Assembly (NCBI GenBank): GCA_937944235.1
Contig: CALDYZ010000020.1
Location: 1 to 48,002, forward strand
Reading direction: 5' to 3'
From: Candidatus Dojkabacteria bacterium
GTDB taxonomy: Bacteria; Patescibacteriota; Dojkabacteria; J137
DNA length: 48,002 bases
In this document: positions 3,003-46,526 of the stretch, piece after piece
Layout of the letters: the number at the start of each line of letters is the position of its first letter
Position numbering within the stretch: the first letter of the stretch is position 1
The notes under the pieces: model-generated
Told to the model about the DNA's origin: nothing
What the model saw: only the letters and a program-made list of their open reading frames with translations
Database searches by the model: none
Program-made: the position numbers and the translations under genes

Positions 3003-3045
3003 GACTAGCATATTACAAGTATAATCTAAATAAAGCAAATTTCAT

Positions 3046-10219: not shown

Positions 10220-10260
10220 AATATTATATTTTATTTAATTAATAATTTACTTATAAAATT

Positions 10261-12229: not shown

Positions 12230-12259
12230 TATTTTTTGTCTTTTTATCAATAAAATTAT

Positions 12260-15979: not shown

Positions 15980-17185
15980 CTAAATATTTAGAATTTTAAC
16001 TATTCTGTCTATTATATTTTTTCTTTGTTTTTCTTGGATTTTTTTACTCTTTTTTTTATTGACTCTTTCAGGGTGGTAGTATTCGCCTTCTACTATTACT
16101 TTGTAATTAGATAACTCAGATTGCATCTGTGAAATATATTGATTTTTTAGCTGTAACAATTTATTTAAGTTCGCAATCATTTTTTGTAGATCTTCGATAT
16201 TTTTTCTTTGTATTTCGGTAATTCTTTCTTGTTCTTTTGACTTTTTTTCTAATTCTGTGAACATTTTTGCGTTTGAGTGTATTGTTTTAAATTCTTCTCC
16301 CTCCACAATAGTATATATCAATTCAATCTCGCTTATACCAGTATTCAGATGATTATTGATCTCAGAATCGTTTGGATCCCTATTAAGAATTTTCTTATAA
16401 ACGGATTTTATCATCTCTTTCCTTTGATTTCTGTCCATAATGTTATTACTTTGTTGTGTATTCGTTGAAGTATATTTGTTACCATTCTTGTCGCTACCAT
16501 TATAACTACTTGTCGATGTAAATGGCATCAGATCCATATCTAATCCTTCATTGTTATAGTCGGTGGTGCTATACACAGACTTTTTGTTTATATTCTTAAA
16601 AAAGTTGATCTCTTCCTGATTTATTTTATTGTTATTTAAGAATGTATTTAATGAATCTGCTATTTTTTCAGTTACAGCATTTAACTCTTGGTCATTATTT
16701 AAAATTTTGATGTCATCTTCGTTATCAATAAAAAGAAGTTCCAAACATGTGCCAGGTATGGCGTTTTCACTTAATACAATTAATTTTTTTAATTCGTGAT
16801 CATATTCGCTTTTTGCTCCGAGGTTTGTCCAATTAAATTTTAGTGACAACTCGGAGGTTATGAATCTTGCAAGTTTTTCCGATCTGTTATTTTCGTTGTG
16901 TTCACCGCAGTACCATGCTTCAACACCTCTTTTGCCTCCGTCATTTATGTGAAATTCAAAAAAAATATCTCCATTTTCAACTGATACTTTTTGCTTTTTT
17001 ATCCAATTTAAACGATCAAGCAAATTTAGATCTAGCGGTACAGTTATATAATCAACATTAAGCCTTATTAAGTGTGGAATTATCATAGATAAAAGTTTCC
17101 TGGTCAGATCTGCTTCTCTCAAGCCTTTGAACACGACTCCTGGATTATCTATTGTATGTGCAGCTGAAATAACAAGTTTAGACAT
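15980..17185 (-). CDS. N-acetylmuramoyl-L-alanine amidase (Amidase_3-like) with DUF4214-like module and C-terminal coiled coil
   Basis: Amidase_3 pattern VISAAHT..NPG, FFEFHINDG, GVEAWY, CLELLFIDNEDD. Then MIKSVYKKILNRDPNDSEINNHLNTGISEIELIYTIVEGEEF (DUF4214-like). Then heptad-rich KSKEQERITEIQRKNIEDLQKMIANLNKLLQLKNQ. The start overlaps the parB stop by 8 nt. Confidence 0.75.
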   Translation of the reverse strand: MSKLVISAAHTIDNPGVVFKGLREADLTRKLLSMIIPHLIRLNVDYITVPLDLNLLDRLNWIKKQKVSVENGDIFFEFHINDGGKRGVEAWYCGEHNENNRSEKLARFITSELSLKFNWTNLGAKSEYDHELKKLIVLSENAIPGTCLELLFIDNEDDIKILNNDQELNAVTEKIADSLNTFLNNNKINQEEINFFKNINKKSVYSTTDYNNEGLDMDLMPFTSTSSYNGSDKNGNKYTSTNTQQSNNIMDRNQRKEMIKSVYKKILNRDPNDSEINNHLNTGISEIELIYTIVEGEEFKTIHSNAKMFTELEKKSKEQERITEIQRKNIEDLQKMIANLNKLLQLKNQYISQMQSELSNYKVIVEGEYYHPERVNKKKSKKIQEKQRKNIIDRIVKILNI

Positions 17186-27382: not shown

Positions 27383-28477
27383 ATGAATCAAATTCATAGA
27401 GATAAGATAAAATTTATATCCTTTGTGCTAGTTTTCTTTTTATTATATCTGTTGAATGTAACCATGTTTTTGAGGTTTCTAGGAATACTGACTTTAAGTT
27501 ATGTAGCAGTACTTTTGATTTATCCATTATATGCTAGACTGTTAAAATCGCTAAAGTCTAAATCTTTAACTGCCATTGTAAGTTATTTTATATTCTTACT
27601 TTTTATATTGGTGCCTTTTGGTTTATTAGTTATAATTATTGTTAATGAAATTATAAACATTATAAACAATATTTCATTTACCGAATACATTAATAACGTT
27701 ACCGAATTACAAAATGCAATAAATAATTTAATATCGACAATTAATCAAGTTTTTATAAATTTGAACTTGGACTTCAAAATCTCTTACATAGATCTAAATA
27801 CATTTTTTAAAGATATCGATACTTCTAACTTTATTCAAAATCAACTAATACCTTTTTTTAGGAACTTAGCTACATTTAGTGTAGATTTTTTATTTAGTTT
27901 TTTTATTTTTAGTTTGTCAGTGATACTCATATTACCTGAGTGGCCAAACATACCTGTTTACTTTAGTAAAATATCTCCTTTGGATGATAAATATGATCTA
28001 ATGATTATTAGTAAGATAAATCTGGCAATAAGAAATATACTATTTGCAAGTTTTGGGGTATCTTTATTACAAGCAACCGCTGTTTTGATTCCTATGTTGT
28101 TCTTAAACGTAAATTCACCAATATTGCTATGGATTATAATGGTTTTAATGTCGATTGTACCAGTAGGGTCAGGCGTAGTTTGGTTTCCAGTAGGAACAAT
28201 TTACATCATTAATGGGCTTGTTTCTTTTAATTTTGGTTATGTCTTAACAGGTCTATTATTCATAGTATACTCTGCGATTATTATTAATTTAATAGAAGCT
28301 TATTTTAGACCTAAATTTATGGATAATGCTTTAGGAATTCATCCTCTGGTAGTGATATTGAGTGTCATAGGCGGAATTGGAGTATATGGTGCACTCGGTT
28401 TGATATATGGACCTGTATTGGTGGTTTTGCTAATAACTTTTGTAAATATATACAAAAAGAGTTTAGAAAATATATGA
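27383..28477 (+). CDS. AI-2E (PerM/UPF0118) family transporter-like membrane protein
   Basis: 364 aa, about 8 TM helices, with the size and helix spacing typical of the family. The assignment rests on overall pattern only. Confidence 0.6.
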   Translation: MNQIHRDKIKFISFVLVFFLLYLLNVTMFLRFLGILTLSYVAVLLIYPLYARLLKSLKSKSLTAIVSYFIFLLFILVPFGLLVIIIVNEIINIINNISFTEYINNVTELQNAINNLISTINQVFINLNLDFKISYIDLNTFFKDIDTSNFIQNQLIPFFRNLATFSVDFLFSFFIFSLSVILILPEWPNIPVYFSKISPLDDKYDLMIISKINLAIRNILFASFGVSLLQATAVLIPMLFLNVNSPILLWIIMVLMSIVPVGSGVVWFPVGTIYIINGLVSFNFGYVLTGLLFIVYSAIIINLIEAYFRPKFMDNALGIHPLVVILSVIGGIGVYGALGLIYGPVLVVLLITFVNIYKKSLENI

Positions 28478-29016: not shown

Positions 29017-30048
29017 TTATATTAAACCTAATAGTGTTAGCTTTTGGATGTGTTCATCATAATTTTTTGAAAAGTATGTTTTGTTATTATGGTGAAAAAA
29101 ATAAAACCATTCGCTTTGTACCTCTGAAAAAGATGCTTCTATAGACCTTAAGCCTGGATTACAAATTGGAGAAGGAGGTAATCCGGTGTTTTTATAAGTA
29201 TTGTATGGGCTATCTATCAATAAATCAGAAATTAGTACACCTGGGTCATTTTTTTTTGTTATAAAATTGACTGTTGCATCAGATTGTAAAGGCATATTAA
29301 TTTTGATTCTATTTTTAAAAACACTTGCTATCAAATTTGGATCATCTTCCTTGCTTGATTCTCGTTCAACAATTGATGCTAAAATTAATTTACTATAGAA
29401 ATCAGGATTTTCGTGGTATTTTCTAGTTTTAGATATGAAATTGCTAAACATTTTTGTAATAATGTCTTTTTCATCAACATTATTATTAAATTCATATGTA
29501 TCAGGGAAAAGCATTCCTGAGATCCCATATTTTTCATGAATGAAACTTAAAAGGCTTTTATTAAAATATATAGAAATTGTTTTGGGATTTTTAATTATAT
29601 CTTCAAAAGTTTGTCTGCTCAATTGGGGAAATCTGTTTATCAATACGTCTATTATTTGGTCATCTCTTAAACCTTCTATTATTGTGACAGTAATACCTTT
29701 TTCGATGGTGTCCGTATTAAGGACTTTTATTATATTTTCTATATCGTTATTTTTTTTTAGTGTATGTTCTCCAAACTTAAAATTTAGCGGAATTTTATTC
29801 AACAAACTATAGATTCTGAAGGCTAAGTATGACTTAATAAAGCCTTCATGTTCTAATCTTTTGATGATATCACTAATATTTTCACCTTCATTTATAATAA
29901 ACTTAAATTCATCATCTTGTTGGGTATCGTTTATTATTTTTATAGATCTTTCCCACCACGAGAGCGATATATTCAAAAATATTCCCAAAAAGATTACTAT
30001 GAATAATATCAATTTAAACTTAAATTTAACTTTTAATAAGTTTTTCAT
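29017..30048 (-). CDS. mltG: Endolytic murein transglycosylase MltG (YceG-like)
   Basis: N-terminal TM, ASIVERES, LQSDATVNF, DSPYNTYKNTGLPPSPICNPG. Conserved synteny downstream of ruvX. Confidence 0.9.
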   Translation of the reverse strand: MKNLLKVKFKFKLILFIVIFLGIFLNISLSWWERSIKIINDTQQDDEFKFIINEGENISDIIKRLEHEGFIKSYLAFRIYSLLNKIPLNFKFGEHTLKKNNDIENIIKVLNTDTIEKGITVTIIEGLRDDQIIDVLINRFPQLSRQTFEDIIKNPKTISIYFNKSLLSFIHEKYGISGMLFPDTYEFNNNVDEKDIITKMFSNFISKTRKYHENPDFYSKLILASIVERESSKEDDPNLIASVFKNRIKINMPLQSDATVNFITKKNDPGVLISDLLIDSPYNTYKNTGLPPSPICNPGLRSIEASFSEVQSEWFYFFHHNNKTYFSKNYDEHIQKLTLLGLI

Positions 30049-30050
30049 AG

Positions 30051-30461
30051 TTATTGATCGATTGTATTATTAAAATAATCCTCTGCTATAAGCATCGCTG
30101 ATATAACGTCATGGTTATATTTTTTATGATTTTTATCTTTTTTTTTGATGAATTGCTTCTGTATTTCAGTGGTCAAAGTTTCGTCGATGAATGAGTAAGG
30201 AATATTTGTTAGTTTATAAACATGTCTTGCAAAATTTTTTATATCTCTTTCTAGGTTATGTAAATTATTAAAGTTGTTGTTAATATTGTTTGGAACTCCC
30301 CAGACTATCTTTTCAATTTGATATTCTTTTGCAAAATTTTCTATTTGGTTCAACAAAAGTTTTGTCTGCACTTGTTTCAGTGGCATAATTATTTTGGTGC
30401 TGGAATCACCCAAAGCAGTACCGCAACGCTTTAGACCGTAATCCACGAATAATATGAACAT
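30051..30461 (-). CDS. ruvX: Putative pre-16S rRNA nuclease / Holliday junction resolvase-like YqgF
   Basis: N-terminus ILFVDYGLKRCGTALGD, size 136 aa, and position upstream of mltG. Confidence 0.85.
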   Translation of the reverse strand: MFILFVDYGLKRCGTALGDSSTKIIMPLKQVQTKLLLNQIENFAKEYQIEKIVWGVPNNINNNFNNLHNLERDIKNFARHVYKLTNIPYSFIDETLTTEIQKQFIKKKDKNHKKYNHDVISAMLIAEDYFNNTIDQ

Positions 30462-33414: not shown

Positions 33415-33485
33415 ATTTACATGTTGTATATAAACTAACTTGCATAACTGTTTTCCAATTCTATTCTGTGGTGTATAATCTAGTT

Positions 33486-34625
33486 ATGTCGTATTCTTAT
33501 TCTCCTGAACTTAAAAGTTTGATTGTCAAAATACAATCAAATTCTGATTTGCCTAAAGAATTAAAAAACAAATTGTTTGATATGGTAGGTCGTATTGTAA
33601 AAGTTGAAAGAGCTGGTATGGTGTCAAACGAATATGAATCAATATCACAGTATGTAGATTGGACAACTAAAATTCCTTGGAATAGATATTCAGCTGAGGA
33701 TATGGATCTTAGTCAGGCTAAAGAGATTTTAGATAAGTACAACTACGGTTTAGAACCAGTTAAACAGAGAGTTTTGGAGTACTTAGCTGTTTTGAAGCTA
33801 AAATCTAAAAAAAATAATAATGAAATTGTTGATAGTGAACGGCATCAAAGTGTGGATATAGTAGAACAAATGAGAAGTAGAAGAGGCAGTTCATCAAATG
33901 CTCCAGTATTATGCTTTGTTGGTATACAAGGTGTTGGTAAAACTTCTATAGCAAAAGCAATAGCGATAGCTTTAAACAGAAGTTTTATTCGTATAGCAAT
34001 GGGTGGTTTGGCTAATATTAATGAAATAAGAGGATTAAATAGGAGTTTACCTAATTCAGAACCAGGACAGATAATAAAAGCTTTGATAAGAAGTGGTAAC
34101 ATGAACCCAATAATTTTATTAGATGAAATAGATAAAGTAAGTAAAGATTCTGGTTTGAGAGCAGATATTATGGCAGCTTTGTTAGAAATTTTAGATCCTG
34201 AGCAAAATTCAACCTTTATAGATAGGTATATTGATTATCCTGTTGATTTATCTAGATGCATTTTTATAACAACTGCAAATAATTTAGGTGGAATTTCTGC
34301 GGCTCTTTTAGATAGATTGGAAGTTATTCGATTTGGGAGCTACAATGATAGTGATAAAATTATTATTGCTAAAAATTACTTATTGCCTAAAGTTTTAGAG
34401 GCAGCTGGGATAAGTGATGAGAATTTGCAATTTGATGAAGATGTATGGCCATTGGTAATAAGGCCTTTGGGTTTTGATGCAGGTGTTAGACAGTTAGAAA
34501 GAACATTAATGGATTTGGCTAGAAAAATAGCTTTAAAAATTGTTAAGGGTGAAGGTCAACATTTTAAAATAACTAAAGAAAATTTTAGGCAATACATTCC
34601 AGATGATATGGGTGTTTACACTTAA
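33486..34625 (+). CDS. Lon-like AAA+ ATPase module without LAN N-domain and without protease domain
   Basis: YVDWTTKIPWN, YGLEPVKQRVLEYLAV, Walker A GIQGVGKTS, Walker B ILLDEIDK, sensor FITTANN, LLDRLEVIRF, and AGVRQLER. All are collinear with the Lon A-type ATPase, and the ORF stops where the protease domain would begin. The track start (33468) is a GTG; the ATG is at 33486. Confidence 0.8.
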   Translation: MSYSYSPELKSLIVKIQSNSDLPKELKNKLFDMVGRIVKVERAGMVSNEYESISQYVDWTTKIPWNRYSAEDMDLSQAKEILDKYNYGLEPVKQRVLEYLAVLKLKSKKNNNEIVDSERHQSVDIVEQMRSRRGSSSNAPVLCFVGIQGVGKTSIAKAIAIALNRSFIRIAMGGLANINEIRGLNRSLPNSEPGQIIKALIRSGNMNPIILLDEIDKVSKDSGLRADIMAALLEILDPEQNSTFIDRYIDYPVDLSRCIFITTANNLGGISAALLDRLEVIRFGSYNDSDKIIIAKNYLLPKVLEAAGISDENLQFDEDVWPLVIRPLGFDAGVRQLERTLMDLARKIALKIVKGEGQHFKITKENFRQYIPDDMGVYT

Positions 34626-34633
34626 GTTTTTTA

Positions 34634-35827
34634 ATGCTAAGTATGTCAAACAACAAAATAAATACTTTTCTATCTATAGATATAGGTACAGAAAATTTGA
34701 AAATAGCTTTATGTACGGTACATTTTAATACAGTAGAGATAATAGGTTTCAAAAAACTTCCACAGGTTAGAGGTTCGGTAAGGTCTTCTTTTATAATAGA
34801 TATAGCCTCAGTTATCGAAAAAATTGATTTAGGAGTAGGTTTGATAATTAGTGAAGTTAAAGATGAGTATGATATAAATTTACCCAACACCGCTGTTTTT
34901 GGTGTAGCTGGAGAATCTGTTTTGGGCAAAACAGTTCATATAGAATTTGTGCGAAAAAAAAATAATGTAATTTCTGAGTCAGAGTTTTTGTCTATTGTAA
35001 ATGCTGCAAAGGATGGTGTATTTGAATCAGTAAAGCCTAACTTAGCTGAAAATTCACTAATAGATGAACATCTACTTGCAGAAGTTACAACAGAGCTGAT
35101 AGGTATCAAATGTGATGGTCAATACGTAAAGGAAGCTGTTGGAGTTAGTGCAGGCAATATAGAATTAGTTTTTTATGTCGCTTACGCTCCACAAATATAT
35201 TTAGATAGTTTATCTAAAATAGCGAATAAATTTTCATTATCAGCGTTTAAAACTTTTGTAGAACCTTTTGCTATATCACAAACGTTAGATTTAGATGTAA
35301 ATTATGCTAATAATTGTGTTGTGGTGGATATAGGTGGAGGAACTACAGATGTAGCTGTGATGTCTAATAAAGAATTAGTTGGCACTAAAATATATGGAAT
35401 AGGAGGAAATACTTTTACGCAGTATATAGCTGATAAATTAAACATTAATTTTGATAAAGCTGAAGAATTAAAACTTCAGTATTCCAACCAAAAATTAACT
35501 CATACAGAAGAAGTAGAGTTATCGCGGATTATAGATAAGGCAGCATATGTTTGGGCCCGGTCATTAGAATTGGCTTTATTAAAACTGATAGATACGAAGG
35601 AATTGCCTTATAACTTTTATTTTTGTGGAGGATCATCTCTTTTACCCAATATTCAGCAAATAATGATTAGTTATCCTTGGCAACAAAAACTAAATTTTGT
35701 TAAATATCCCAAATTTAACTATTTGTTTCCAAACAAAATAAAGGATGTTGTGGACAAAACTAGAACAGTTAATTCATTGTCTGATGTTGCTGTGATGTCT
35801 TTAGCGAGTTATTTTGTAAAAAAATGA
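34634..35827 (+). CDS. Second actin-fold ATPase (FtsA/PilM-like paralog)
   Basis: LSIDIGTENLKIAL (phosphate 1), VVVDIGGGTTDVAVM (phosphate 2), GIGGNTFTQYIA, and FYFCGGSSLLPNI (adenosine). An SHS2-like insert sits between phosphate 1 and 2, as in FtsA. Confidence 0.75.
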   Translation: MLSMSNNKINTFLSIDIGTENLKIALCTVHFNTVEIIGFKKLPQVRGSVRSSFIIDIASVIEKIDLGVGLIISEVKDEYDINLPNTAVFGVAGESVLGKTVHIEFVRKKNNVISESEFLSIVNAAKDGVFESVKPNLAENSLIDEHLLAEVTTELIGIKCDGQYVKEAVGVSAGNIELVFYVAYAPQIYLDSLSKIANKFSLSAFKTFVEPFAISQTLDLDVNYANNCVVVDIGGGTTDVAVMSNKELVGTKIYGIGGNTFTQYIADKLNINFDKAEELKLQYSNQKLTHTEEVELSRIIDKAAYVWARSLELALLKLIDTKELPYNFYFCGGSSLLPNIQQIMISYPWQQKLNFVKYPKFNYLFPNKIKDVVDKTRTVNSLSDVAVMSLASYFVKK

Positions 35828-37650
35828 TAATACATTCATCTAAGTATTTTTTAGATTTAGATACAAATTTATTTAATGTTTATGACATTTTAGAAAATGA
35901 AGGAAAGGACCATATAATAATTGTTATACCTACTGATAGTACTTTGTTTGATGGTCAAATAAATTTTGATATAATCAGAACATTTTGCGATGACCTTAAG
36001 AAAGTCGTTGTGATAGTTACAGAAGATGAAAAAGGTTTAAAAATGATACAAAGAAGTGGTTTGGTTGGAGTTAAAAAGATAAGTCAGGTAACGGTAGATT
36101 TGTGGCAAGTAGCTGAACAGAGAGTTTATTTAGCACAGAGAAATAATGTATCAAATATTCAAGAAGTTGAAAATGTTTATCAAACAAATGATTTGTCATA
36201 TGAACATTCTAAGTTGAAGTATACTGATGAAAGTGAAACTGATAATGATAGTTATATGGTGAATTTTGATGAGAAGGATGTAGTTTTTTATGTAGGTAAG
36301 GATGTAAAGAAGATAGTGAGTAAATCTAAGAAAGAGGATATACAAAGAGTTGAAAATTTCGGATCTCTGATTGCAGGTAATGACTATAGCAAGTTTCTCT
36401 TTAAGAAGAATGATAGAAATAAAAATTATTTGTATTTTGTTTTGAGAATATTGTCAAGTTTGTTTTTTTTTAGAAAAAACTTGTTATTGTTTTCTGCAAT
36501 AACGATCTGTATACTTATTAGTGCATTAGTAATATTTAATAGGTTCTTAATAAGTGAGGTATTAATAACCACCGTTAAAGAAGAAATAGTTAAGGAATTT
36601 AAAGTAATATTGTCTGAAAGCTACAATGAAGATGATACGTATACTACCGATGGTGTAAAGTCATCATTAACTATAGAAGAGATAGAAGATGTGTCTATAT
36701 CAAAAACTTTTAACATATCAAAAAAAACAAAAACAGGTAATAAAGCAGTCGGTTTAATATCTTTGTATAATTTAACTGATCAAGATATAAACTTGCCAGT
36801 GGGTACAAAAGTAAAGTCTCTTATTCTAGGCAAGGAATACGTAGTAACCAAAGAAGTGGTTGTGCCTAAAGTATCCAGAAACTCCCTAGGGGAAAAAATC
36901 CCACAATCTGTAGAAGATGTAACAATACAAGCTTTGGAATATGGCGAATCTTATAACTTGTCTCTTTCTCAAGGGGATGATAATTTTATTATCTTGTTAG
37001 ACGGTTATGACGATGTTTCCAAAGCTTCAGGTCGTATATTCAGAGATATAAAAGGGGGAGAATCGTTTGAAGTATTTAGAGTCTTACAGAGTGATGTTGA
37101 TGATGTAATAGAAGATATAAAAAATGAACTCCGATTGATAACAAAAGATAAATTGTTAAGTAGAGTTTTAGCTACAGAAATTGCTTTTACAAAGAATATA
37201 AATTATATATTAACTGAAAAAAAAATCTTACCAGACATTGGGGAGGATTCTGCAGACGGATTGTTTACTATATCTATGAAAATGAAGGGAGAATTACCAA
37301 AAATATCAAAGTTTAAATTAGATGAGTTGGCTAAAATTTATTTTCAGAATGTTAATGAAAAACAGCTAGAAACTCAAAATCTAAAATCACAGATCTTAGA
37401 TATTGTTTATGATGAACAAAACAAAGTTTATCATTTGAATGTTGGTTTATCAGCCAATGTTATTAGTAGATTTTCTGAAGAATACATTTTTAACCTAATT
37501 AAGGGAAAGTTTGATGCGGAAGCAAAATACATTTTGTCGAATAATGAAAATATATCTTCTGTAAACATACTTTTTAAACCTGGCTTTGTACCTGATTTTA
37601 TGAAATATATACCAACAGATAAAGATAGAGTGCAAATACGCATAATTTAG
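35824..37650 (+). CDS. Large bitopic membrane protein (about 210-aa cytoplasmic N-domain, one TM, about 370-aa outside domain), unknown family
   Basis: 608-aa ORF whose start overlaps the upstream stop (ATGA). Single TM LLLFSAITICILISALVIFNRFLI. No motif I can name. Confidence 0.7.
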   Translation: MIIHSSKYFLDLDTNLFNVYDILENEGKDHIIIVIPTDSTLFDGQINFDIIRTFCDDLKKVVVIVTEDEKGLKMIQRSGLVGVKKISQVTVDLWQVAEQRVYLAQRNNVSNIQEVENVYQTNDLSYEHSKLKYTDESETDNDSYMVNFDEKDVVFYVGKDVKKIVSKSKKEDIQRVENFGSLIAGNDYSKFLFKKNDRNKNYLYFVLRILSSLFFFRKNLLLFSAITICILISALVIFNRFLISEVLITTVKEEIVKEFKVILSESYNEDDTYTTDGVKSSLTIEEIEDVSISKTFNISKKTKTGNKAVGLISLYNLTDQDINLPVGTKVKSLILGKEYVVTKEVVVPKVSRNSLGEKIPQSVEDVTIQALEYGESYNLSLSQGDDNFIILLDGYDDVSKASGRIFRDIKGGESFEVFRVLQSDVDDVIEDIKNELRLITKDKLLSRVLATEIAFTKNINYILTEKKILPDIGEDSADGLFTISMKMKGELPKISKFKLDELAKIYFQNVNEKQLETQNLKSQILDIVYDEQNKVYHLNVGLSANVISRFSEEYIFNLIKGKFDAEAKYILSNNENISSVNILFKPGFVPDFMKYIPTDKDRVQIRII

Positions 37651-37658
37651 TTTTCCCC

Positions 37659-37688
37659 TTGACAAAAATATTTTGCATAAATTATACT
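37659..37688 (+). promoter_or_regulatory. Sigma-70-type promoter of groESL
   Basis: TTGACA (37659-37664), 18 nt, TATACT (37683-37688), immediately upstream of the CIRCE-like palindrome. Confidence 0.55.
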
Positions 37689-37697
37689 AACTTTTAG

Positions 37698-37724
37698 TTA
37701 GCAGGTTAGCATGTGAGATGCTAA
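37698..37724 (+). promoter_or_regulatory. CIRCE-like inverted repeat (putative HrcA operator)
   Basis: TTAGCAGGT-N9-AGATGCTAA compared with the CIRCE consensus TTAGCACTC-N9-GAGTGCTAA. The outer 6 nt of each arm are exact. Located between the promoter and groES. Confidence 0.55.
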
Positions 37725-39745: not shown

Positions 39746-39780
39746 GGTTTTGATTATTGCGCGTTTCAAAAAACTCAAGA

Positions 39781-39814
39781 AGCGAACCAAACAAAAATTT
39801 GGTTCGCTTTTTTT
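39781..39814 (+). terminator. Rho-independent terminator of groESL
   Basis: Perfect 11-bp stem AGCGAACCAAA / TTTGGTTCGCT, 6-nt loop, followed by a run of T residues. Confidence 0.85.
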
Positions 39815-39887
39815 AGGCGAAGATATTGAGTTATTAATTTTTTTATGTTTATACTATTTTAATGTGTATTTATATATATTTTTTGTT

Positions 39888-40256
39888 ATGAAAAACTTAA
39901 TAAGTCTAATTCTGAGTTTGTTACTTGTTTTTCTTTCTTATAATATCAGCGTGTTTGCTAATGCTGGAGGATTTGTTCCAAGAATACCAAATCCTAGTAA
40001 ATTCAATACTGGTGAGGATATAATCAATGCACTAGCTGGTCTGATTAGACCTGCTTTCTTGATTGGTTTTGCTGCAATGTTGTTTTTTGGTGCGTGGACA
40101 TACCTTACAGCAGGTCCTGACGATGGTAAAATTAAGAATGCAAAAAATATAATTACTGCAGCCATTGGTGGTTTTATATTGGCGGTGCTGGCACCAACAA
40201 TCATGAATTTTATTGGCGGTTTACTTGGTGTACAAGGTGGTTTAACAATTTTGTAA
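39888..40256 (+). CDS. TrbC/VirB2-like (T4SS-pilin-type) small membrane protein, paralog 1
   Basis: Signal peptide MKNLISLILSLLLVFLSYNISVFANA, TM1 LIRPAFLIGFAAMLFFGAWTYL, loop TAGPDDGKIKNAKN, TM2 IITAAIGGFILAVLAPTIMNFIGG. The start at 39888 lies downstream of the groESL terminator. Confidence 0.75.
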   Translation: MKNLISLILSLLLVFLSYNISVFANAGGFVPRIPNPSKFNTGEDIINALAGLIRPAFLIGFAAMLFFGAWTYLTAGPDDGKIKNAKNIITAAIGGFILAVLAPTIMNFIGGLLGVQGGLTIL

Positions 40257-40257
40257 A

Positions 40258-40866
40258 ATGAGAGTTTTACTTTTTATTATTTTTTTTGCTGCTATTATAT
40301 TTTTGTACAATTCATATTTGTCAGCTAATGAAGGTAGTGATCCGTGTGCTATTGTTAAAAGCCAGTGTCCCAAACCTTGTAAAGGTATTCAGAATGAGCT
40401 TAATTGTTACATACCTAATTTTGATTGTTTATCTAAAAAACCATTAGAACCGAAGTTATCGTGTTGTATATCTAAATGTAAGGATAGTGCAAAATCGGGT
40501 TTTAATGAAAATGAACTGAAGGAATTTTATCGGACTTTTAATTTTTTTGGCACGAAGGTCAACGTAAATACTAGTAGTTTGGTGGGATGGGTTACTCTGT
40601 CAGTGCAAGCTTTCCTAGCTGTTGTTTCTGTTGTAGCTTTATTAAGAGGGATTAAGGCAGGAGCATTTGATTTACCAAGAGGAGATAAACTTGAAGAAGT
40701 AAAAAAAGATGTGAGGAATACTTTATTAGGTTTTTTCTTAGCATGGGGTGCTATTTTTATTATCCAAGTCGTACTTTCTGTGCTAGGTATACCTGGTTTG
40801 AACGAGTTGGTAATCATTGGAGATCAACCTGGTTCTAAAACTGGCGGTACTATAGTTATTAAATAG
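40258..40866 (+). CDS. Two-TM hairpin (pilin-like) paralog 2 with an 8-Cys N-terminal ectodomain
   Basis: Signal peptide, 8 Cys in about 50 aa (DPC..SQC..KPC..LNC..FDC..SCC..SKC), TM1 LVGWVTLSVQAFLAVVSVVALL, basic loop, TM2 TLLGFFLAWGAIFIIQVVLSVLGI. It begins 1 nt after paralog 1. Confidence 0.7.
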   Translation: MRVLLFIIFFAAIIFLYNSYLSANEGSDPCAIVKSQCPKPCKGIQNELNCYIPNFDCLSKKPLEPKLSCCISKCKDSAKSGFNENELKEFYRTFNFFGTKVNVNTSSLVGWVTLSVQAFLAVVSVVALLRGIKAGAFDLPRGDKLEEVKKDVRNTLLGFFLAWGAIFIIQVVLSVLGIPGLNELVIIGDQPGSKTGGTIVIK

Positions 40867-40888
40867 TTAATAATAATAATATAACAAT

Positions 40889-41377
40889 ATGATGTATCGA
40901 ATTTTAGTACAAATATTTCAAAATAGTGGATCTGATAAAATTTTACCTGAGCAAATATCTGATAAAATCAAGCCTATTGAAATCCCAATTTTCCCAATTG
41001 TGGTCGAAGGTTTTGATCCGAAATATTCCACCATTTTATCATGGTTATCTTTTGCTGGAGTAATCTTGACAATAATTGTTTTAGCAATTTTCATAGTGAG
41101 AATCGTTTTTTTAAGTTATAAAATGATAGTTCAAGGGTCAGAAAAGGAAGAAGTTGTTGGTGATGTATTTAAAAAATTTAGGTTGAATTTTGTAGGTTTA
41201 ATTATTACTTTTTTGACGCCAATTATATTATCTTTAATAGGTGGATTCCTAGGTATAGGTAACATTTTTCGGTGGCCAAAGATGTTTAGTTCTTGTTCTG
41301 GATCTGAATATGAATTCTATTTTGAAGCTTACTTAAGAGAAGGTACAGATGCCGACAATTTATGTTTTACTAATTAA
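40889..41377 (+). CDS. Two-TM hairpin (pilin-like) paralog 3
   Basis: TM1 ILSWLSFAGVILTIIVLAIFIVRIVFL, loop KMIVQGSEKEEVVGDVFKKFR, TM2 LNFVGLIITFLTPIILSLIGGFLGI. C-terminal tail with 2 Cys. Confidence 0.65.
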   Translation: MMYRILVQIFQNSGSDKILPEQISDKIKPIEIPIFPIVVEGFDPKYSTILSWLSFAGVILTIIVLAIFIVRIVFLSYKMIVQGSEKEEVVGDVFKKFRLNFVGLIITFLTPIILSLIGGFLGIGNIFRWPKMFSSCSGSEYEFYFEAYLREGTDADNLCFTN

Positions 41378-41394
41378 GTATTTATTTATGTTAT

Positions 41395-41775
41395 ATGAAT
41401 GAAAAACGTAACTATAATGCTTGTGATATTCTTGGCTGTCCAGAATCATTAATAGATGGCGGACAGATAGTATCTTCTGGTTCAAGTCTGGTCGAGTATG
41501 CAGTATCTTTGGTTTTCCCCGGGCTAATAGTTATTGGAGTCTTTGTGATAGTAAAATCTGCTTATAGGTTTATTAAAAGTGAAGGGGTAACTCAGGAAAT
41601 AGAATCTTCTCAAAAAGCAATAAAGAGAGTTTTTATTGGGATAATAATGCTGTTTTTGGGCTTTGTGGGTTATATATTGATACTAAGTTTTTTTAACGCA
41701 TCTAAAATAGATCTAAGTTCAGATAGTATTGAAAAACCTGGTGTTATAAAAAATATAGATGTCCCATTTATATAA
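41395..41775 (+). CDS. Two-TM hairpin (pilin-like) paralog 4
   Basis: N-terminal CDILGC pair, TM1 VSLVFPGLIVIGVFVIVKSAY, loop KSEGVTQEIESSQKAIKR, TM2 VFIGIIMLFLGFVGYILILSFF. Confidence 0.65.
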   Translation: MNEKRNYNACDILGCPESLIDGGQIVSSGSSLVEYAVSLVFPGLIVIGVFVIVKSAYRFIKSEGVTQEIESSQKAIKRVFIGIIMLFLGFVGYILILSFFNASKIDLSSDSIEKPGVIKNIDVPFI

Positions 41776-41805
41776 AAAAAAGATTTATTATGTATATGAA
41801 TAATT

Positions 41806-42609
41806 ATGAATATTACTAAATTCTTAATATCGTGCTTTGTCTGCTTCTTTTTAGCTATCAATAACAACATGCTTGTTGATACAATTTTTGCTCAAGGATT
41901 TTCTGGTAATGATCCTTCAAGCTACCAGTGTTTTGATTCCGAAGGAAAGAAATTGGATGTAAGGCCGACTCTAAAGGATGGTGTGATGACATGTGAATAC
42001 GAAGGCAAAACCTATCAAGCAGTACTAAAACCTGTAAGTTTACAGCAATTAGAAATATGGTTTATAAAAATAGTCTACTTTATATGGGCATTTGTTGCAA
42101 CGTTCTCTTTTGTTTTGTTACTTGGAGTAGCTTACCAATATATGATTTCTAGAAATGCTGGATCAGCTTTGGCACAGGCTCGTCAGAGAATTTTTCAATA
42201 TATTCTTGGTTTTGCGTTGGTGTTTTTAGCAGTACCAATACTTAGTACAATGTTTAGATTACTGGGAGTAGATGACTCGATAGAATGTTACTCTGGACTT
42301 AGTGGTGAAAATAATGTCGGTATTGGTTTTCAGTTTATATTTGCTGATTTGTGCACTGATCCAAAAGGCAAGTATCAGGATATACTAGGACATTTAGGCA
42401 GAGTAATCAATAGAGAAAGATCTAAAAGCCCTACTAATCCTATTGCTGTGCTAACAGCACTAAGAAATGAAATTGACAAAATAAATGGAACTGCATGTGA
42501 TGAAAGATCTTTTAGGGAAAATGTTCAGTGTATTGGAAATATCAAAGTAAGTATAGCATGTGTTAATGCTAGGTATAATGTAACAGTAGATTTTCCTTGT
42601 AATAAATAA
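41806..42609 (+). CDS. Two-TM hairpin (pilin-like) paralog 5 with Cys-containing N- and C-terminal ectodomains
   Basis: Signal peptide, 2-Cys N-module, TM1 IVYFIWAFVATFSFVLLLGVAYQYMI, loop SRNAGSALAQARQR, TM2 IFQYILGFALVFLAVPILSTMF, and a C-terminal ~110 aa with 6 Cys. Confidence 0.7.
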   Translation: MNITKFLISCFVCFFLAINNNMLVDTIFAQGFSGNDPSSYQCFDSEGKKLDVRPTLKDGVMTCEYEGKTYQAVLKPVSLQQLEIWFIKIVYFIWAFVATFSFVLLLGVAYQYMISRNAGSALAQARQRIFQYILGFALVFLAVPILSTMFRLLGVDDSIECYSGLSGENNVGIGFQFIFADLCTDPKGKYQDILGHLGRVINRERSKSPTNPIAVLTALRNEIDKINGTACDERSFRENVQCIGNIKVSIACVNARYNVTVDFPCNK

Positions 42610-42627
42610 AATTAAAAAGTAAGCAAA

Positions 42628-44013
42628 ATGTTTTACCTGAATTGTAAATCTTTATTTTTTAGAGTTTTCAGAAAAGGACATTTAATGTATGTTTTAGATA
42701 AAAAAACTGCTTTTGATCTAAAAAGTAGTTTACAATTAAATAATCTAAGATTCGTTTCGACTGAACTTAGTTTGGAGCAAATTTTATCTGGGAAACATGA
42801 AGTCACTATAGAATTTTTTAGATTTGCTGATGATTTAAAATTATTAACACTATCCGACGTTTCATCGAAAGATTCTAATCATGTAGACAGTAAAATAATC
42901 ATAGACAGAAAGAATTTAATTAATAATACTAGATCACTTCTCAGTGAATTGGAAGTGAATCAAGATTCATTAGATAAATATCTGCGTAAAATTCAGCTGA
43001 GATTTTTTGAAAGTCAGATCAAAATTTACGATGATTCGATAAATAACAGCAAAAAAGACCATGAAACTAATCTAGAAAATTTAATATCTCAAAGAACTGC
43101 TTTTGAAAAATTAGTAAAAGATTTGAGTTATTTTCAAAATAAACTAAATTCAGTTGACCAACAAATTCAAAAACTACATGGACTGTTCCAAAATTTAGAT
43201 TTAAAAAAATATGTAGAAGATTTAAAAGTGAAAAGATTGATGCTTGTAAACCAGAAATTGAGAAATCCAACCATTGGTAATATACATAGTTCTTCTGTGG
43301 ATGAAAAGTTATCAGAGTTTGATAGCTTTGTAGGTGAAGGTATATTGATTCTTTCATTTGTACAAATTTTAGTGGCAACTTTATTTTTTGTAAATTTAGG
43401 TTTTGTGAAGGAAAATATAATATTTTCTACTTTTTACTTAATCTTTAATTTCTTTTCTTTTTTAATATTCAACAAATTGAGATTTAAACAAAAATTTGAA
43501 AGATTTTTAGACTCTTCCGAATCTCAAAAATACGAATTCGAGAAATTAGTAGGAACATTATCAAAAGAAACTGTAGAAAAAGTAAAACAAATATCTTACT
43601 TAGAAGCTTTGAATTATGAAAAAAAAATTATAGAAAAATCAATGAATTTTTTGAGTGGTGGTAAAAGCGTAGATGAATTAAAAATTACAATAGAAGAATT
43701 AGATAAAAAAATTAATGAATCGGTCAATTTAGATGACCGTTGGATAATTGATGAGGATCAATATTATTACTGCAAAAGAGAAATAAATCTACTTAAATTA
43801 GAAGTCGATGATTATGATGCTGAGATTGAAGTAGAAAATTTAAATAAATTTGCAAGTGTGGGTGATTTTTTATCAAAATTACATCTTATGAAAGATGAGT
43901 ATATGTTGCCATTATTTATACAAGTTGATAGTGGTTTTGATTACAATAAAGATTTTGATCCACAAAGATATGATATCAAAGATAAACAAATTATATTTAT
44001 AAGTTTTGCATAG
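42628..44013 (+). CDS. Coiled-coil membrane protein (two central TM helices), unknown family
   Basis: 461-aa ORF. Heptad-rich segments flank the TM pair ILILSFVQILVATLFFVNLGF / IIFSTFYLIFNFFSFLIF. An alternative start is the Met at 42685. Confidence 0.65.
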   Translation: MFYLNCKSLFFRVFRKGHLMYVLDKKTAFDLKSSLQLNNLRFVSTELSLEQILSGKHEVTIEFFRFADDLKLLTLSDVSSKDSNHVDSKIIIDRKNLINNTRSLLSELEVNQDSLDKYLRKIQLRFFESQIKIYDDSINNSKKDHETNLENLISQRTAFEKLVKDLSYFQNKLNSVDQQIQKLHGLFQNLDLKKYVEDLKVKRLMLVNQKLRNPTIGNIHSSSVDEKLSEFDSFVGEGILILSFVQILVATLFFVNLGFVKENIIFSTFYLIFNFFSFLIFNKLRFKQKFERFLDSSESQKYEFEKLVGTLSKETVEKVKQISYLEALNYEKKIIEKSMNFLSGGKSVDELKITIEELDKKINESVNLDDRWIIDEDQYYYCKREINLLKLEVDDYDAEIEVENLNKFASVGDFLSKLHLMKDEYMLPLFIQVDSGFDYNKDFDPQRYDIKDKQIIFISFA

Positions 44014-44101
44014 AAATTAGTGCTAGAAACTGGAAATATGAATTACTTGAGAAAGTTTTATAGAAATATTAAAATTTGATTTAGTGTTAAATTTTAACTT
44101 A

Positions 44102-45916
44102 ATGTTATCAAAATTGTTTATTTTCCCATTTTGTTTTCTTGTTTGGTCGTTTTTAGCTCCTCAATTAGTATTTGGGCAAAGTTCTATAGACTTTCAAAAT
44201 CTAATAGCTAGTAAAGAGTACGAGCTAAATGAGTTAAATAAAAAAATCAAAGATATAGAGGAAAAATCAAAGTTGATTTCTTTAGATTTATTAAAAACAA
44301 GTTCTGAATTAGAAAAATTAGACAGAGAGTTAGTTTACTATGAAAATGAAATTGAGAAGATTAATTTATTTAGACAAAGATCATTATTGGAAATTGAGAT
44401 ACATAAATCTAAAAAAAAAGAATTAAGCTTGATACAAAATGCTGCATCAAAGATCACATACAAGAATTGGAGGTCAAGTAATATATTGCAAAAAACTTCA
44501 ATATTCTTCGTAACAGAGCTATATGATCCGAAAAGATATGAAAAATACAATGATACGTATTTTAGTAATGTTGATTTAAGTATAACTGATGTTTCTAGGA
44601 ATATATTGTTTTTGGATGAACAGATATCAAGAACTGCTGAAGGGATCAATGATTTCAACAAAATCAAAAAGGATTTAGTAGCAAAAAAAGCAGAGATACA
44701 ACAAAGTTTGTATTTGTTGAGTAATGAGAGGAACAGCTACAGAAAAGAGTATTTGTCAATTAGTGACAATATAAATAAGTTGAAGTCTGATATAACCTTT
44801 TTAAGTAATGAGCAAAAAAAAGCAATTGAGAGAGAAATTATGATGTTAGCTAATGCTAATCCAAGTAATAATCAAGTTTCTTTACAGCCCGGTGAATTTT
44901 ACTTTAAAGGTCAGGGAAGAGATTTATATCAAGGACATGGAGTAGGTATGAGTCAATTTGGTGCCCATGGAGCTGCTTTAAACGGCTATAGTTATGACCA
45001 AATTCTGAAATTTTATTATCAAGGAGTTGAAATTTCTGACTTGCATCATACACAAAACATAATGGTTGATGGTTATGGGTATATGGATATTGAAGACTAT
45101 GTATCAGGACAGGGAGAGGTCCCAGCTTATGCGTGCGGAACACAAGATCAAATTGATGAATGGCGGATATACGCAGATGTTCAAGGTTGGGAACACAATG
45201 ATCCTAGGAGAAAAAAGTATGTAATTGATGATACTTCTACTATATGGGATTGCTGGCCAGAAGAAGCAATAAAAGCTCAAGTTGTTGCTTTTAGAACCTA
45301 TGCTTTAAATTATGTATCCAGGAAAGGTTCCATATGTACCTCGGCTGCTTGTCAGGTGTATAAAAACAATAAAAATTCAGCATGGGCTGCAGAGGAGACC
45401 AAAGGTAAGGTTATTACTTACAGTGGTGAATTGATAGAGGCCCTTTACTCTTCGGATAACAATCAAGGTTATGGTACTGCAAACAACGATACCGTGTTTA
45501 CCAATTTTCATGGTGATGGAACACCATACCCGTATTTAAGGTCTGTAAATGACAGTACTTTTGCAACAAAAACGTTTTATTCCAATTGGAAATATAATAC
45601 TAGAAAATATACTTTTGAAAGCATTTTTCAGATGCTTAGTTACATAGCCTATGCACCCAATAGTGATATAGATAGATATGATAGTTTTGTCCGAAATAAT
45701 ACAAAGTCCTTAATAAATGGATCGATAAGTATTAATTCTATATCTTTAGAATTAGATCCATCTAAGAGGGTTAAGAAAGTTTTTATTCAATTTGATAATG
45801 GGAGTATAAAAAGCATCAGCGGTTATTGGTTTAAATATATGTGGAATGTTTGGTCGTTTTATACAGGTAGTTATGACTATATTTATAGTCAGACGTTTGC
45901 CTTAGCATATGAATAA
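44102..45916 (+). CDS. Secreted coiled-coil + SpoIID/LytB-domain protein
   Basis: Signal peptide MLSKLFIFPFCFLVWSFLAPQLVFGQ, about 230 aa of coiled coil, then SpoIID motifs GHGVGMSQFGA, AIKAQVVAFRTYALNY, CTSAACQVYK, ETKGKVITYSGELIEALYSS. The track start (44084) is a GTG; the ATG is at 44102. Confidence 0.85.
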   Translation: MLSKLFIFPFCFLVWSFLAPQLVFGQSSIDFQNLIASKEYELNELNKKIKDIEEKSKLISLDLLKTSSELEKLDRELVYYENEIEKINLFRQRSLLEIEIHKSKKKELSLIQNAASKITYKNWRSSNILQKTSIFFVTELYDPKRYEKYNDTYFSNVDLSITDVSRNILFLDEQISRTAEGINDFNKIKKDLVAKKAEIQQSLYLLSNERNSYRKEYLSISDNINKLKSDITFLSNEQKKAIEREIMMLANANPSNNQVSLQPGEFYFKGQGRDLYQGHGVGMSQFGAHGAALNGYSYDQILKFYYQGVEISDLHHTQNIMVDGYGYMDIEDYVSGQGEVPAYACGTQDQIDEWRIYADVQGWEHNDPRRKKYVIDDTSTIWDCWPEEAIKAQVVAFRTYALNYVSRKGSICTSAACQVYKNNKNSAWAAEETKGKVITYSGELIEALYSSDNNQGYGTANNDTVFTNFHGDGTPYPYLRSVNDSTFATKTFYSNWKYNTRKYTFESIFQMLSYIAYAPNSDIDRYDSFVRNNTKSLINGSISINSISLELDPSKRVKKVFIQFDNGSIKSISGYWFKYMWNVWSFYTGSYDYIYSQTFALAYE

Positions 45917-46526
45917 ATCTTATTTAAAAAGAAAAATATTGGAGGATATTCTGAAGAATCAGGAATATCGCAGGTGTGCAAATGAATTAAAAAGAAAAAT
46001 TTATTTTAATGGACAGAATCCAGACGAAGTTATTTTTGCAAAGTTAAGGAGTTCATATATTAGAAACATTTCTTGGCTAATTGAAATATTATTTCTTTTT
46101 GTTTTGCCCATTTTGTTACCTGAATTAATAAATTTTATGAACAGTCTAAATGTAATTATTATTGAAAAAACTTTTTTAAGTTATACAGTTATTTTCGTCG
46201 CATATTACAGTATTTTATTAACTTTTTTTGTTTACAAGTTTTTAGACTGGTATTTAGATATTTACTTAGTGACCAGTCAAAGACTTATAGAAATAGTATT
46301 TAGGCCTTATGGTGACATTTACACAAAAGAAATATGGTTAGGAGATATAGATACTATAAAAACTAGTAGCTCTGGATTATTAGGACTTATTTTGAATTAT
46401 GGGGACATTAAAATTATAACTCGTACTGAAAGTGGAGGAGCAGAATTAAAATATATATCTAATTTTAACAAAGTTAAGAATTTGATATCTGATTTAAGTA
46501 AAATTAGTAAAAAGTATGAAAATTAG
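45909..46526 (+). CDS. Bacterial PH-domain (bPH_2/YdbT-like) membrane protein
   Basis: Two TM helices, then LDWYLDIYLVTSQRLIEIVFRPYGDIYTKEIWLGDIDTIKTSSSGLLGLILNYGDIKIIT. It overlaps the SpoIID-gene stop by 8 nt. Confidence 0.75.
   Translation: MNKSYLKRKILEDILKNQEYRRCANELKRKIYFNGQNPDEVIFAKLRSSYIRNISWLIEILFLFVLPILLPELINFMNSLNVIIIEKTFLSYTVIFVAYYSILLTFFVYKFLDWYLDIYLVTSQRLIEIVFRPYGDIYTKEIWLGDIDTIKTSSSGLLGLILNYGDIKIITRTESGGAELKYISNFNKVKNLISDLSKISKKYEN

Follow-up and report, generated by a model that had tools for sequence, protein, structure and literature searches.

A conserved gene pair for an FtsA/PilM-class actin-like ATPase and a predicted baseplate-J-like membrane protein in Dojkabacteria and other bacteria

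Introduction

GspL, a component of type II secretion, holds an actin-like cytoplasmic domain, a transmembrane helix and a periplasmic domain in one chain. A two-gene arrangement that may follow a comparable logic is the subject of this work: a gene for an actin-like ATPase of the FtsA/PilM class is followed by a gene for a 608-residue single-pass membrane protein (hereafter the partner) in a 48,002-nt stretch of DNA from a Candidatus Dojkabacteria bacterium (GenBank assembly GCA_937944235.1, contig CALDYZ010000020.1, positions 1 to 48,002), to which we refer as the window. Just upstream lies a gene for a protease-less Lon-type AAA+ ATPase, and an initial annotation, made from the sequence alone, had described the three genes as one compact module that was not recognisable as a known system. 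The reading that we favour, with moderate confidence, is that the actin-like gene and the partner gene form a translationally coupled, envelope-spanning unit composed of an anchored actin-like ATPase and a baseplate-J-like ectodomain, the AAA+ ATPase being a bystander.

The pair has a probable counterpart in Southlakia epibionticum, where the gene order is alaS, SEML1_0656, SEML1_0655, ruvX, mltG, LysM and obg (Wang et al., 2023; PMC10633639). In that annotation SEML1_0656 carries the name ‘pilus assembly protein PilM’, with the KEGG orthology assignment ftsA and PF14450 as its only Pfam domain, and SEML1_0655 that of ‘baseplate J/gp47 family protein’, which DPAM parses into a SpoIIaa-like region (residues 6-105), a beta-barrel and two further domains, one G3P-like and one gp6 domain III (PMC10633639). 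Both genes are flagged as core families enriched in Patescibacteria. Transposon sequencing (Tn-seq) rated SEML1_0655 as class II essential (NE/ES/ES; reads 373, then 34, then 24), and showed a late growth defect for SEML1_0656 (NE/NE/GD; reads 2427, then 660, then 221) (PMC10633639, Table S1). S. epibionticum also encodes a genuine PilM, together with PilN and PilO in a pilus locus, and a genuine FtsA beside FtsZ. The SpoIIaa-like region of SEML1_0655 is the probable equivalent of the N-terminal domain of the window partner. Annotation pipelines give the genes of the pair generic names of this kind (‘pilus assembly protein PilM’ or ‘cell division protein FtsA’ for the first, ‘baseplate J/gp47 family protein’ for the second), and a paper that discusses the pair or explains its mechanism was not found in the searchable literature. 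That the system is not a known one holds, therefore, as far as an explanation of the pair is concerned; it does not hold entirely, since generic names exist and fitness data stand in a supplementary table.

Results

Arrangement of the genes

The genes concerned and their junctions, the latter read directly from the sequence, are the following.

33486-34625, + strand: protease-less Lon-type AAA+ ATPase, 379 residues (alternative GTG start at 33468)
34626-34633, + strand: 8-nt spacer between the TAA stop of the AAA+ gene (34623-34625) and the ATG of the actin-like gene (34634)
34634-35827, + strand: FtsA/PilM-class actin-like ATPase paralog, 397 residues
35824-35827, + strand: ATGA overlap, in which the partner ATG (35824-35826) overlaps the TGA of the actin-like gene (35825-35827)
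35824-37650, + strand: bitopic membrane protein of 608 residues, N-in/C-out, of a baseplate-J-like family

The three open reading frames (ORFs), the 8-nt gap and the overlap are as the initial annotation had described them, and because all three frames have many homologs under purifying selection they are not chance. The ATGA overlap is predicted to couple the translation of the partner to that of the actin-like gene. The 8-nt spacer 5′ of the actin-like gene holds no Shine-Dalgarno-like sequence.

Conservation of the actin-like gene and its partner

The alignment of the actin-like protein was used to scan named genomes, one per species, with custom hidden Markov models (HMMs) for the neighbouring genes; the partner alignment had no stretch conserved enough for back-translation. 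The scan gave 36 true family loci, the next-best hits being canonical ftsA-ftsZ loci. These 36 loci span Saccharibacteria, Moranbacteria, Dojkabacteria, Peribacteria, Howlettbacteria, Chloroflexota (Limnocylindria and Chloroflexia), Dormiibacterota and Natroniella, the last represented by Natroniella sp. ANB-PHB2, a cultured Firmicute carrying the pair. In 31 of the 33 loci that could be assessed the partner gene follows immediately on the same strand, and in the two exceptions it is about 3 kb away. The same order was seen in nine contexts retrieved by exact-protein look-up, where the gene after the actin-like one always encodes a protein of 533-728 residues without Pfam match. All the downstream partners retrieved are homologous to the 608-residue protein, in their N-terminal ~90 residues and their C-terminal 370, and have one transmembrane segment each.

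The pair usually lies between alaS and ruvX-mltG, with ruvX and/or mltG (yceG) directly after the partner gene in 23 of the 33 assessable loci, as well as in loci L005 and L007. Besides ruvX-mltG, the recurrent neighbours are genes for a LysM/CHAP hydrolase, alr-VanY-ddl, sortase, ftsK, a RodZ-like helix-turn-helix protein and ireB. As judged from gene order, the conserved unit is the actin-like gene with its membrane partner, and not the trio. A 719-residue protein without clear family is encoded between ireB and the actin-like gene of Natroniella sp. ANB-PHB2 (L041:7722-9881), and unknown proteins also precede the actin-like gene in L005 (214 residues) and L006 (522 residues); these could be a variable third component.

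Natural fusions of the two proteins

At 12 loci (including L127, L128, L142, L143, L145, L151, L153, L161, L162, L167 and L168; for example L151:18404-20638) the partner gene comes directly after alaS, often with a sortase gene downstream, and there is no separate actin-like gene. The partners encoded there are 680-766 residues long and are matched by the partner HMM only from the transmembrane region onward. Their N-terminal ~250 residues align instead with the actin-like family (hhalign 99.3%, E-value 2e-20, 230 colinear columns). This fused domain lacks the 1C insert and part of subdomain 2B, and its nucleotide motifs have degenerated, DIGTE being replaced by EIDxx, DIGGGTTD by GLGEKKI and CGGGS by LYDGE.

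The two forms are perfectly complementary. The ordinary N-terminal domain occurs with a separate actin-like gene directly upstream at 40 loci, and the fused domain with a separate actin-like gene at none. Three loci have the ordinary domain and no adjacent actin-like gene; in two of them that gene is ~3 kb away, and the third is an artefact of ORF overlap. Because of the fusions and of this complementarity, there is strong genomic evidence that the two proteins of the window function together as a single physical unit, that the N-terminus of the partner is cytoplasmic, and that its N-terminal domain serves to keep an actin fold at the membrane. The initial suggestion that the bitopic protein could anchor the actin-like protein is thus strongly backed by the adjacency in named genomes and by the 12 complementary fusions.

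The actin-like ATPase

Structure searches place FtsA closest to the product of 34634-35827, with PilM next and MreB and ParM far behind. By sequence, the protein matches PF14450 (FtsA) with 61 bits; its matches to MreB and PilM models are weaker, PF11104 of PilM scoring 30.5 bits over residues 224-313 only. It has no match to the SHS2 domain (PF02491), where the canonical FtsA of the window scores 97.8 bits. Both equivalog-type profiles remain below their cutoffs: 66.9 bits against 175.85 for TIGR01174 (FtsA) and 38.6 bits against 133 for TIGR01175 (PilM). The best sequence match in the PDB is Myxococcus xanthus PilM. An AlphaFold2 (AF2) model of high confidence (predicted local distance difference test, pLDDT, 93.2; predicted template modelling score 0.90) was compared with solved structures by Foldseek. 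Template modelling scores (TM-scores) normalised by query length were 0.74-0.77 for FtsA, 0.54-0.67 for PilM, 0.39-0.47 for MreB and 0.32 for ParM; by target length the FtsA value reaches 0.82, with an E-value of 1e-24. On this model, the protein belongs to the FtsA/PilM class and carries a 1C-type insert. A relationship to FcmB, the ‘fifth actin family’, was considered and rejected, as FcmB derives from ParM and is unrelated.

More than 1000 homologs of the actin-like protein were found. Across 53 of them D16/G18/T19, D232-G-G-G-T-T-D239 and G332/G333 are invariant, and with them the phosphate-1, phosphate-2 and adenosine motifs; the ATP-binding motifs of the window protein are intact.

The gene is not beside ftsZ. 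The canonical ftsA-ftsZ genes lie elsewhere in the window (8921-11403), and the two FtsA-like paralogs share 20% identity. The canonical FtsA ends in a linker followed by ‘GKITNFIRRLFP’, whereas its paralog ends at a core helix (residues 382-396; ‘...MSLASYFVKK’), and neither the model nor the comparison of the two C-termini revealed a membrane-targeting amphipathic helix in the paralog. A second FtsA-like protein without an obvious helix of this kind was what the initial annotation had proposed, and the searches agree with it on both counts.

The membrane partner

Fold prediction for the partner gave an AF2 model with an overall pLDDT of 75.6, in which four regions are distinguished.

35833-36078, + strand: cytoplasmic N-terminal alpha/beta domain (N-domain), residues 4-85, beta-alpha-beta-alpha-beta-alpha-beta, pLDDT ~80
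36079-36423, + strand: disordered, charged cytoplasmic linker, residues 86-200, pLDDT <50, poorly aligned and variable in length within the family
36460-36546, + strand: single transmembrane helix, about residues 213-241 (hydropathy 213-249; helix of the model 220-241)
36550-37647, + strand: extracytoplasmic beta-rich ectodomain, residues 243-608, pLDDT ~90, with baseplate-J/gp6-like domains

The hydropathy profile of the 608-residue protein has a single hydrophobic segment (about residues 213-249), and every homolog examined has one transmembrane segment, in keeping with the single-pass topology first proposed. The N-domain is conserved across the partner family, with P36 and K60 invariant.

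Within the ectodomain a GlxA-type beta-barrel is recognised at about residues 307-378 (Foldseek E-value 2e-7). The ectodomain as a whole matches the baseplate of cyanophage A-1(L) (8kea; E-value 1e-5, 353-366 columns), the phi812 baseplate (9euf) and BFVD models named ‘Baseplate J like protein’ (E-values 1e-5 to 1e-4), the baseplate matches covering 350-370 columns overall with a Foldseek probability of 0.99-1.0. At the level of domains, the model thus indicates a baseplate wedge fold. The Pfam family PF04865 is reached by 17 of 80 partner-family members and the GlxA barrel by 25 of 80 (E-value ≤0.01 for PF04865); the Natroniella ortholog scores 33 bits against PF04865, above the gathering cutoff of 21.1. 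A known family that explains why the two genes go together was not encountered, and the baseplate-J fold match does not explain it.

Word-indexed searches, which gave 3-10 relatives, had made the partner look like an orphan. This was overturned by an exhaustive HMM search, in which the family comprises 13,450 clusters at 50% identity with E-value ≤1e-3, and 6,826 with E-value ≤1e-30; the matches are full-length, typically of ~550 residues. Looking up the clusters gave no useful names for the partner. One family member, P0131 (703 residues), has an N-terminal region that differs from the ordinary N-domain and also from the actin domain of the fusions; it looks actin-fold-like by eye, and the family HMM gives no match to it.

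These features bear on the first of the alternatives, namely that the pair is a divergent alignment subcomplex of PilM-PilN type belonging to a type IV pilus or a related surface filament. The PilM-like fold of the ATPase, its best PDB match and the bitopic nature of the partner, which is that of PilN, are in line with this, as are some automatic annotations that suggest a pilus role and the heavy dependence of Patescibacteria on type IV pili (PMC11623550). However, no pilB, pilC, pilT, pilN, pilO or pilin gene lies beside the pair in any locus examined, and Saccharibacteria have separate, complete PilM/N/O sets within their pilus loci. The partner is moreover not PilN-like, as had been noted initially on grounds of size and motif: it has a folded 85-residue N-domain and not a short PilN peptide, and its ectodomain is baseplate-J-like and not of PilN/PilO type. 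Taking also into account that the score against the PilM profile falls far short of its cutoff and that the structural likeness to FtsA exceeds that to PilM, we regard this alternative as unlikely.

The adjacent Lon-type AAA+ gene

The AAA+ protein was described initially as Lon-like and protease-less, and this is what the searches returned. Pfam matches are PF00004 (72 bits) and Lon_lid PF22667 (40 bits) and nothing else, and the match to the NCBIfam lon profile (TIGR00763) covers no more than positions 260-571 of 795 (342 bits, cutoff 608). Neither the N-terminal LAN domain nor the C-terminal S16 Ser-Lys protease domain is present, the ORF ending right after the lid. The ATG start at 33486, rather than the alternative GTG, agrees with the N-termini of homologs. 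Sequence comparison with Lon structures in the PDB (E-value 1e-72) shows that Walker A and B, the Arg finger and sensor 2 are kept, and that the Lon pore-loop-1 ‘RRTYVGAMPG’ is replaced by ‘NRSLPNSEPG’. The pore-loop-1 tyrosine is lost in all five AAA+ members aligned, with L, E or M instead; the five are 50-77% identical, even where the corresponding actin-like proteins share ~30%. PHROGs and PADLOC gave generic Lon/AAA+ matches only. A literature search found no paper on natural protease-less Lon ATPases.

The neighbourhood of the gene was analysed in its 80 closest metagenomic relatives (L089-L168), all 80 of which are protease-less (330-429 residues from stop to stop). The AAA+ gene stands directly after pnp in 57 of them, with very short gaps (median ORF gap 32 nt), and after L25, as in the window, in 11; UDG lies downstream in 54 and RNase J in 51. 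The usual flanks are thus S15-pnp upstream and UDG-RNase J downstream; together with the missing S16 domain and pore-loop tyrosine, they hint that the protein acts close to RNA turnover and not in proteolysis. An actin-like gene directly follows in none of the 80. They reveal a long conserved gene string, S15-pnp-AAA+-UDG-RNase J-ftsK-RodZ-like-YtxH-alaS-partner.

If the trio were one system, the Lon-derived ATPase could remodel or disassemble actin-like filaments anchored by the membrane protein. The three genes of the window are on the same strand, with the 8-nt gap and no terminator-like site between them; of the 28 metagenomic loci with a sufficiently long flank, 16 have a partner-family gene within 10 kb downstream of the AAA+ gene, and this linkage persists across lineages whose actin-like proteins are only ~30% identical. 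The linkage, however, reflects the long gene string and not an operon. Immediate adjacency of the AAA+ and actin-like genes is limited to the window and its nearest relative (L001/L002); in Dojkabacteria a sortase gene stands between them, and in the next-closest relatives a gap of ~0.8 kb. No Lon-type AAA+ gene is found within 10 kb of the pair in any of the 36 named-genome loci, and Southlakia keeps the pair and has no Lon-type AAA+. In the complete Dojkabacteria genome AP024679 the AAA+ gene is in three ORFs of 117, 98 and 139 residues (L003:4102-5183), owing to either a pseudogene or an assembly error, while it is intact in a sister assembly (L004:4105-5220, 371 residues); the pair is intact in both. 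As the AAA+ gene usually belongs to the S15-pnp...RNase J string, apart from the pair, its tight packing in the window is a recent, derived state. Co-transcription with the pair probably arose there only because the intervening genes were lost in this lineage. Gene order thus argues for a separate, conserved Patescibacteria gene unrelated to the pair. The three-gene module of the initial annotation does not stand, nor does the conservation of the trio across Patescibacteria that would go with it, and a single system made of the three proteins seems to us improbable.

Transcription signals and surroundings

Promoter-like sites, the repeat downstream of the pair and the other genes of the window that bear on the comparison are the following.

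33452-33479, + strand: promoter-like site TTTCCA-16-TATAAT upstream of the AAA+ gene, 10/12 consensus matches, a pattern match only
37659-37688, + strand: groES promoter-like site TTGACA-18-TATACT, 11/12 matches
37698-37724, + strand: CIRCE-like inverted repeat TTAGCAGGT-N9-AGATGCTAA, just 3′ of the groES promoter-like site
8921-10219: canonical ftsA (PF14450 and SHS2)
10261-11403: canonical ftsZ
29017-30048, - strand: mltG/yceG (Pfam YceG)
30051-30461, - strand: ruvX (Pfam RuvX)

The -10-like TATAAT of the first site ends 6 nt 5′ of the AAA+ ATG, and from this position the AAA+ mRNA may have a leaderless start. Since a consensus scan found as many promoter-like sites in the region as expected from shuffled sequence, and the scan for terminators found none, the operon structure follows from spacing only. 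The groESL genes have their own promoter-like site, as was first proposed, with the CIRCE-like repeat after it. The CIRCE consensus is TTAGCACTC-N9-GAGTGCTAA, and by this yardstick the repeat suggests HrcA-type heat-shock control in a small genome. The G+C content of the window is ~30%, and its gene order and best-named matches indicate a relative of Dojkabacteria within Patescibacteria. A run search for the window sequence matched raw data of marine-metagenome DNA only, and no RNA runs.

In the window, mltG and ruvX are located ~3.4 kb upstream of the pair on the opposite strand, whereas elsewhere they are its usual immediate downstream neighbours. A gene for an AI-2E family transporter lies near mltG-ruvX both in the window (27383-28477) and in Natroniella, in the latter just before alaS (L041:3483-4544). 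This proximity, common to the window and to a Firmicute, points to a very deep conservation of the neighbourhood.

Downstream of groEL there is a T4SS_pilin-like gene (39750-40256), followed by genes for several small family-less membrane proteins, a 461-residue unknown protein and a 610-residue protein with a SpoIID domain. This string (39750-46526), which is also found after groEL in L001, could represent a cluster for surface structures or secretion in Patescibacteria. Further genes of the window with a link to the envelope or to stress encode a sortase directly after ftsZ (11426-12250, - strand), a 272-residue HEPN-domain protein after the sigma-70 gene (13571-14389), an Amidase_3 protein with a DUF4214 match (15980-17185, - strand) and a transglutaminase-like protein of 607 residues (1215-3038, - strand).

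Discussion

According to the reading that we favour, the cytoplasmic actin-like ATPase, which has no membrane anchor of its own, would be recruited to the membrane by the alpha/beta N-domain of the partner. The disordered linker and the transmembrane helix would couple it to the baseplate-J/gp6-type ectodomain, located in the wall zone of monoderm cells, and nucleotide-dependent assembly on the cytoplasmic side would be tied to a platform on the outer side that oligomerises or contacts the wall. That the N-domain binds the actin-like protein directly is what we infer from the fusions and from the translational coupling; that the ectodomain oligomerises is likewise proposed. Because of the recurrent neighbours (mltG, LysM/CHAP, alr-VanY-ddl, sortase, ftsK, RodZ-like and ireB), such a scaffold would act in the envelope, in cell-wall growth, division or surface assembly.

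Several observations weigh against this reading. The alaS-ruvX-mltG block is mixed and deeply conserved, so that adjacency may represent inherited gene order rather than shared function. The likeness to baseplate-J proteins is at the domain level only, with global TM-scores of 0.13-0.23, and the AF2 model of the partner was built from a 10-sequence alignment. The window partner itself has no PF04865 match in Pfam, where only the GlxA barrel scores (17.3 bits against a cutoff of 27), and for the N-domain no credible sequence-level relative was found in the PDB or Pfam. The loss of the ATP motifs in the fused variants indicates that ATPase or polymer activity would not be universally required. 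As to the fitness data, the equivalence of SEML1_0655 and SEML1_0656 with the window genes, which is probable, is drawn from their annotation and size, from the domain parse and from identical synteny, and the Tn-seq calls for SEML1_0655 could be partly due to polar effects on the essential downstream gene ruvX. Lastly, with the AAA+ gene 8 nt upstream and probably co-transcribed, a lineage-specific functional link to the pair is possible.

A further alternative would derive the membrane protein from a prophage tail or a contractile injection system, as a leftover or a domesticated part paired with an actin by accident; it is scarcely tenable and already largely refuted. The ectodomain does resemble phage baseplate wedge proteins and some family members match Pfam Baseplate_J, but there is no further gene for a tail, sheath, tube or spike in the vicinity, the housekeeping context is conserved in at least four phyla, the window partner has no match in PHROGs, PHROGs and PADLOC do not support the view that the pair came from a phage or a defence system, the SEML1 genes are core, Patescibacteria-enriched and affect Southlakia fitness, phage baseplate proteins are not known to carry a transmembrane anchor or a cytoplasmic domain, and the fusions and their complementarity show that the pairing is not incidental.

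A bolder proposal, which we put forward only tentatively and hold to be rather doubtful, is that the pair represents a third, ancient FtsA/PilM-type class, in which an actin-like ATPase controls a baseplate-J-type platform needed for the normal growth of ultrasmall bacteria, the platform being a cellular relative of phage wedge proteins. Were this true, the class would span Patescibacteria, Chloroflexota, Dormiibacterota and some Firmicutes, beside the FtsA of the divisome and the PilM of the pilus, and the platform would be the source or the descendant of phage baseplate wedge proteins.

The coupled two-gene unit that we favour turns two vaguely named genes into a testable hypothesis about envelope organisation in monoderm bacteria with reduced genomes. 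The hypothesis builds on the partner as dedicated companion of a distinct FtsA/PilM-class actin, on the natural fusion and on the irrelevance of the AAA+ ATPase, and it would imply a cellular use of a phage-baseplate fold. It concerns a partner family of 13,450 clusters that is flagged as core and enriched in Patescibacteria, called essential in the one Tn-seq screen available and without assigned function, and genetically tractable hosts that carry the pair are at hand in Southlakia and the cultured Natroniella. As a by-product, the analysis brings out a conserved protease-less Lon derivative without the pore-loop tyrosine, linked to PNPase and RNase J.

Comparison with known systems

The AAA+ protein resembles LonA and LonP1 in its AAA+ module, Lon lid and preceding helical region (50-60% similar), with the motifs for nucleotide handling intact (Walker A/B, Arg finger, sensor 2). 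It differs from LonA in the absence of LAN, S16 and the pore-loop-1 tyrosine, and makes up a family of its own, usually near pnp and RNase J. The partner shares with the phage proteins Baseplate_J/gpJ/gp47 and T4 gp6 the beta-barrel and gp6-type domains of its ectodomain, and some members reach PF04865; unlike them it is chromosomal, stands in a housekeeping context with no other tail genes, and has a transmembrane anchor and a cytoplasmic domain.

FtsA provides the closest solved structures to the actin-like protein, with the same subdomain layout, including the 1C-type insert, and ftsA-ftsZ is the nearest outgroup of the scan. The protein is set apart from FtsA by its 20% identity to the FtsA of the window, by the lack of SHS2 and of an amphipathic helix, by a TIGR01174 score below cutoff, by its location away from ftsZ and by its pairing with a dedicated membrane protein.

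With GspL the 12 fused variants have in common a single chain made of a reduced actin fold without nucleotide motifs, a linker, one transmembrane segment and an ectodomain, so that the relation of the fused form to the two-gene form would be that of GspL to PilM plus PilN. The fold of the ectodomain and the genomic context differ, however, with no secretion ATPase or pseudopilin genes, and the homology of the fused domain is to the new actin family; homology to GspL is not shown.

PilM-PilN(-PilO) offers the same order of genes, that of an anchorless FtsA/PilM-class ATPase directly upstream of that of a bitopic N-in/C-out tether, the two being adjacent and often overlapping. Unlike PilN, the partner is 3-4 times larger and bears a folded ~85-residue domain and a ~115-residue disordered linker in place of a short peptide; its ectodomain is baseplate-J-like, no pilus genes are nearby, and the genomes that bear the pair also have ordinary PilMNO. 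Both an obligate genomic coupling and a fused form having been found, the pair appears, from its sequence and genomic distribution, to follow the logic of PilM-PilN, GspL and FtsA with its anchor, and by analogy the best reading of it is that of an envelope-spanning scaffold that would work like PilM-PilN or GspL.

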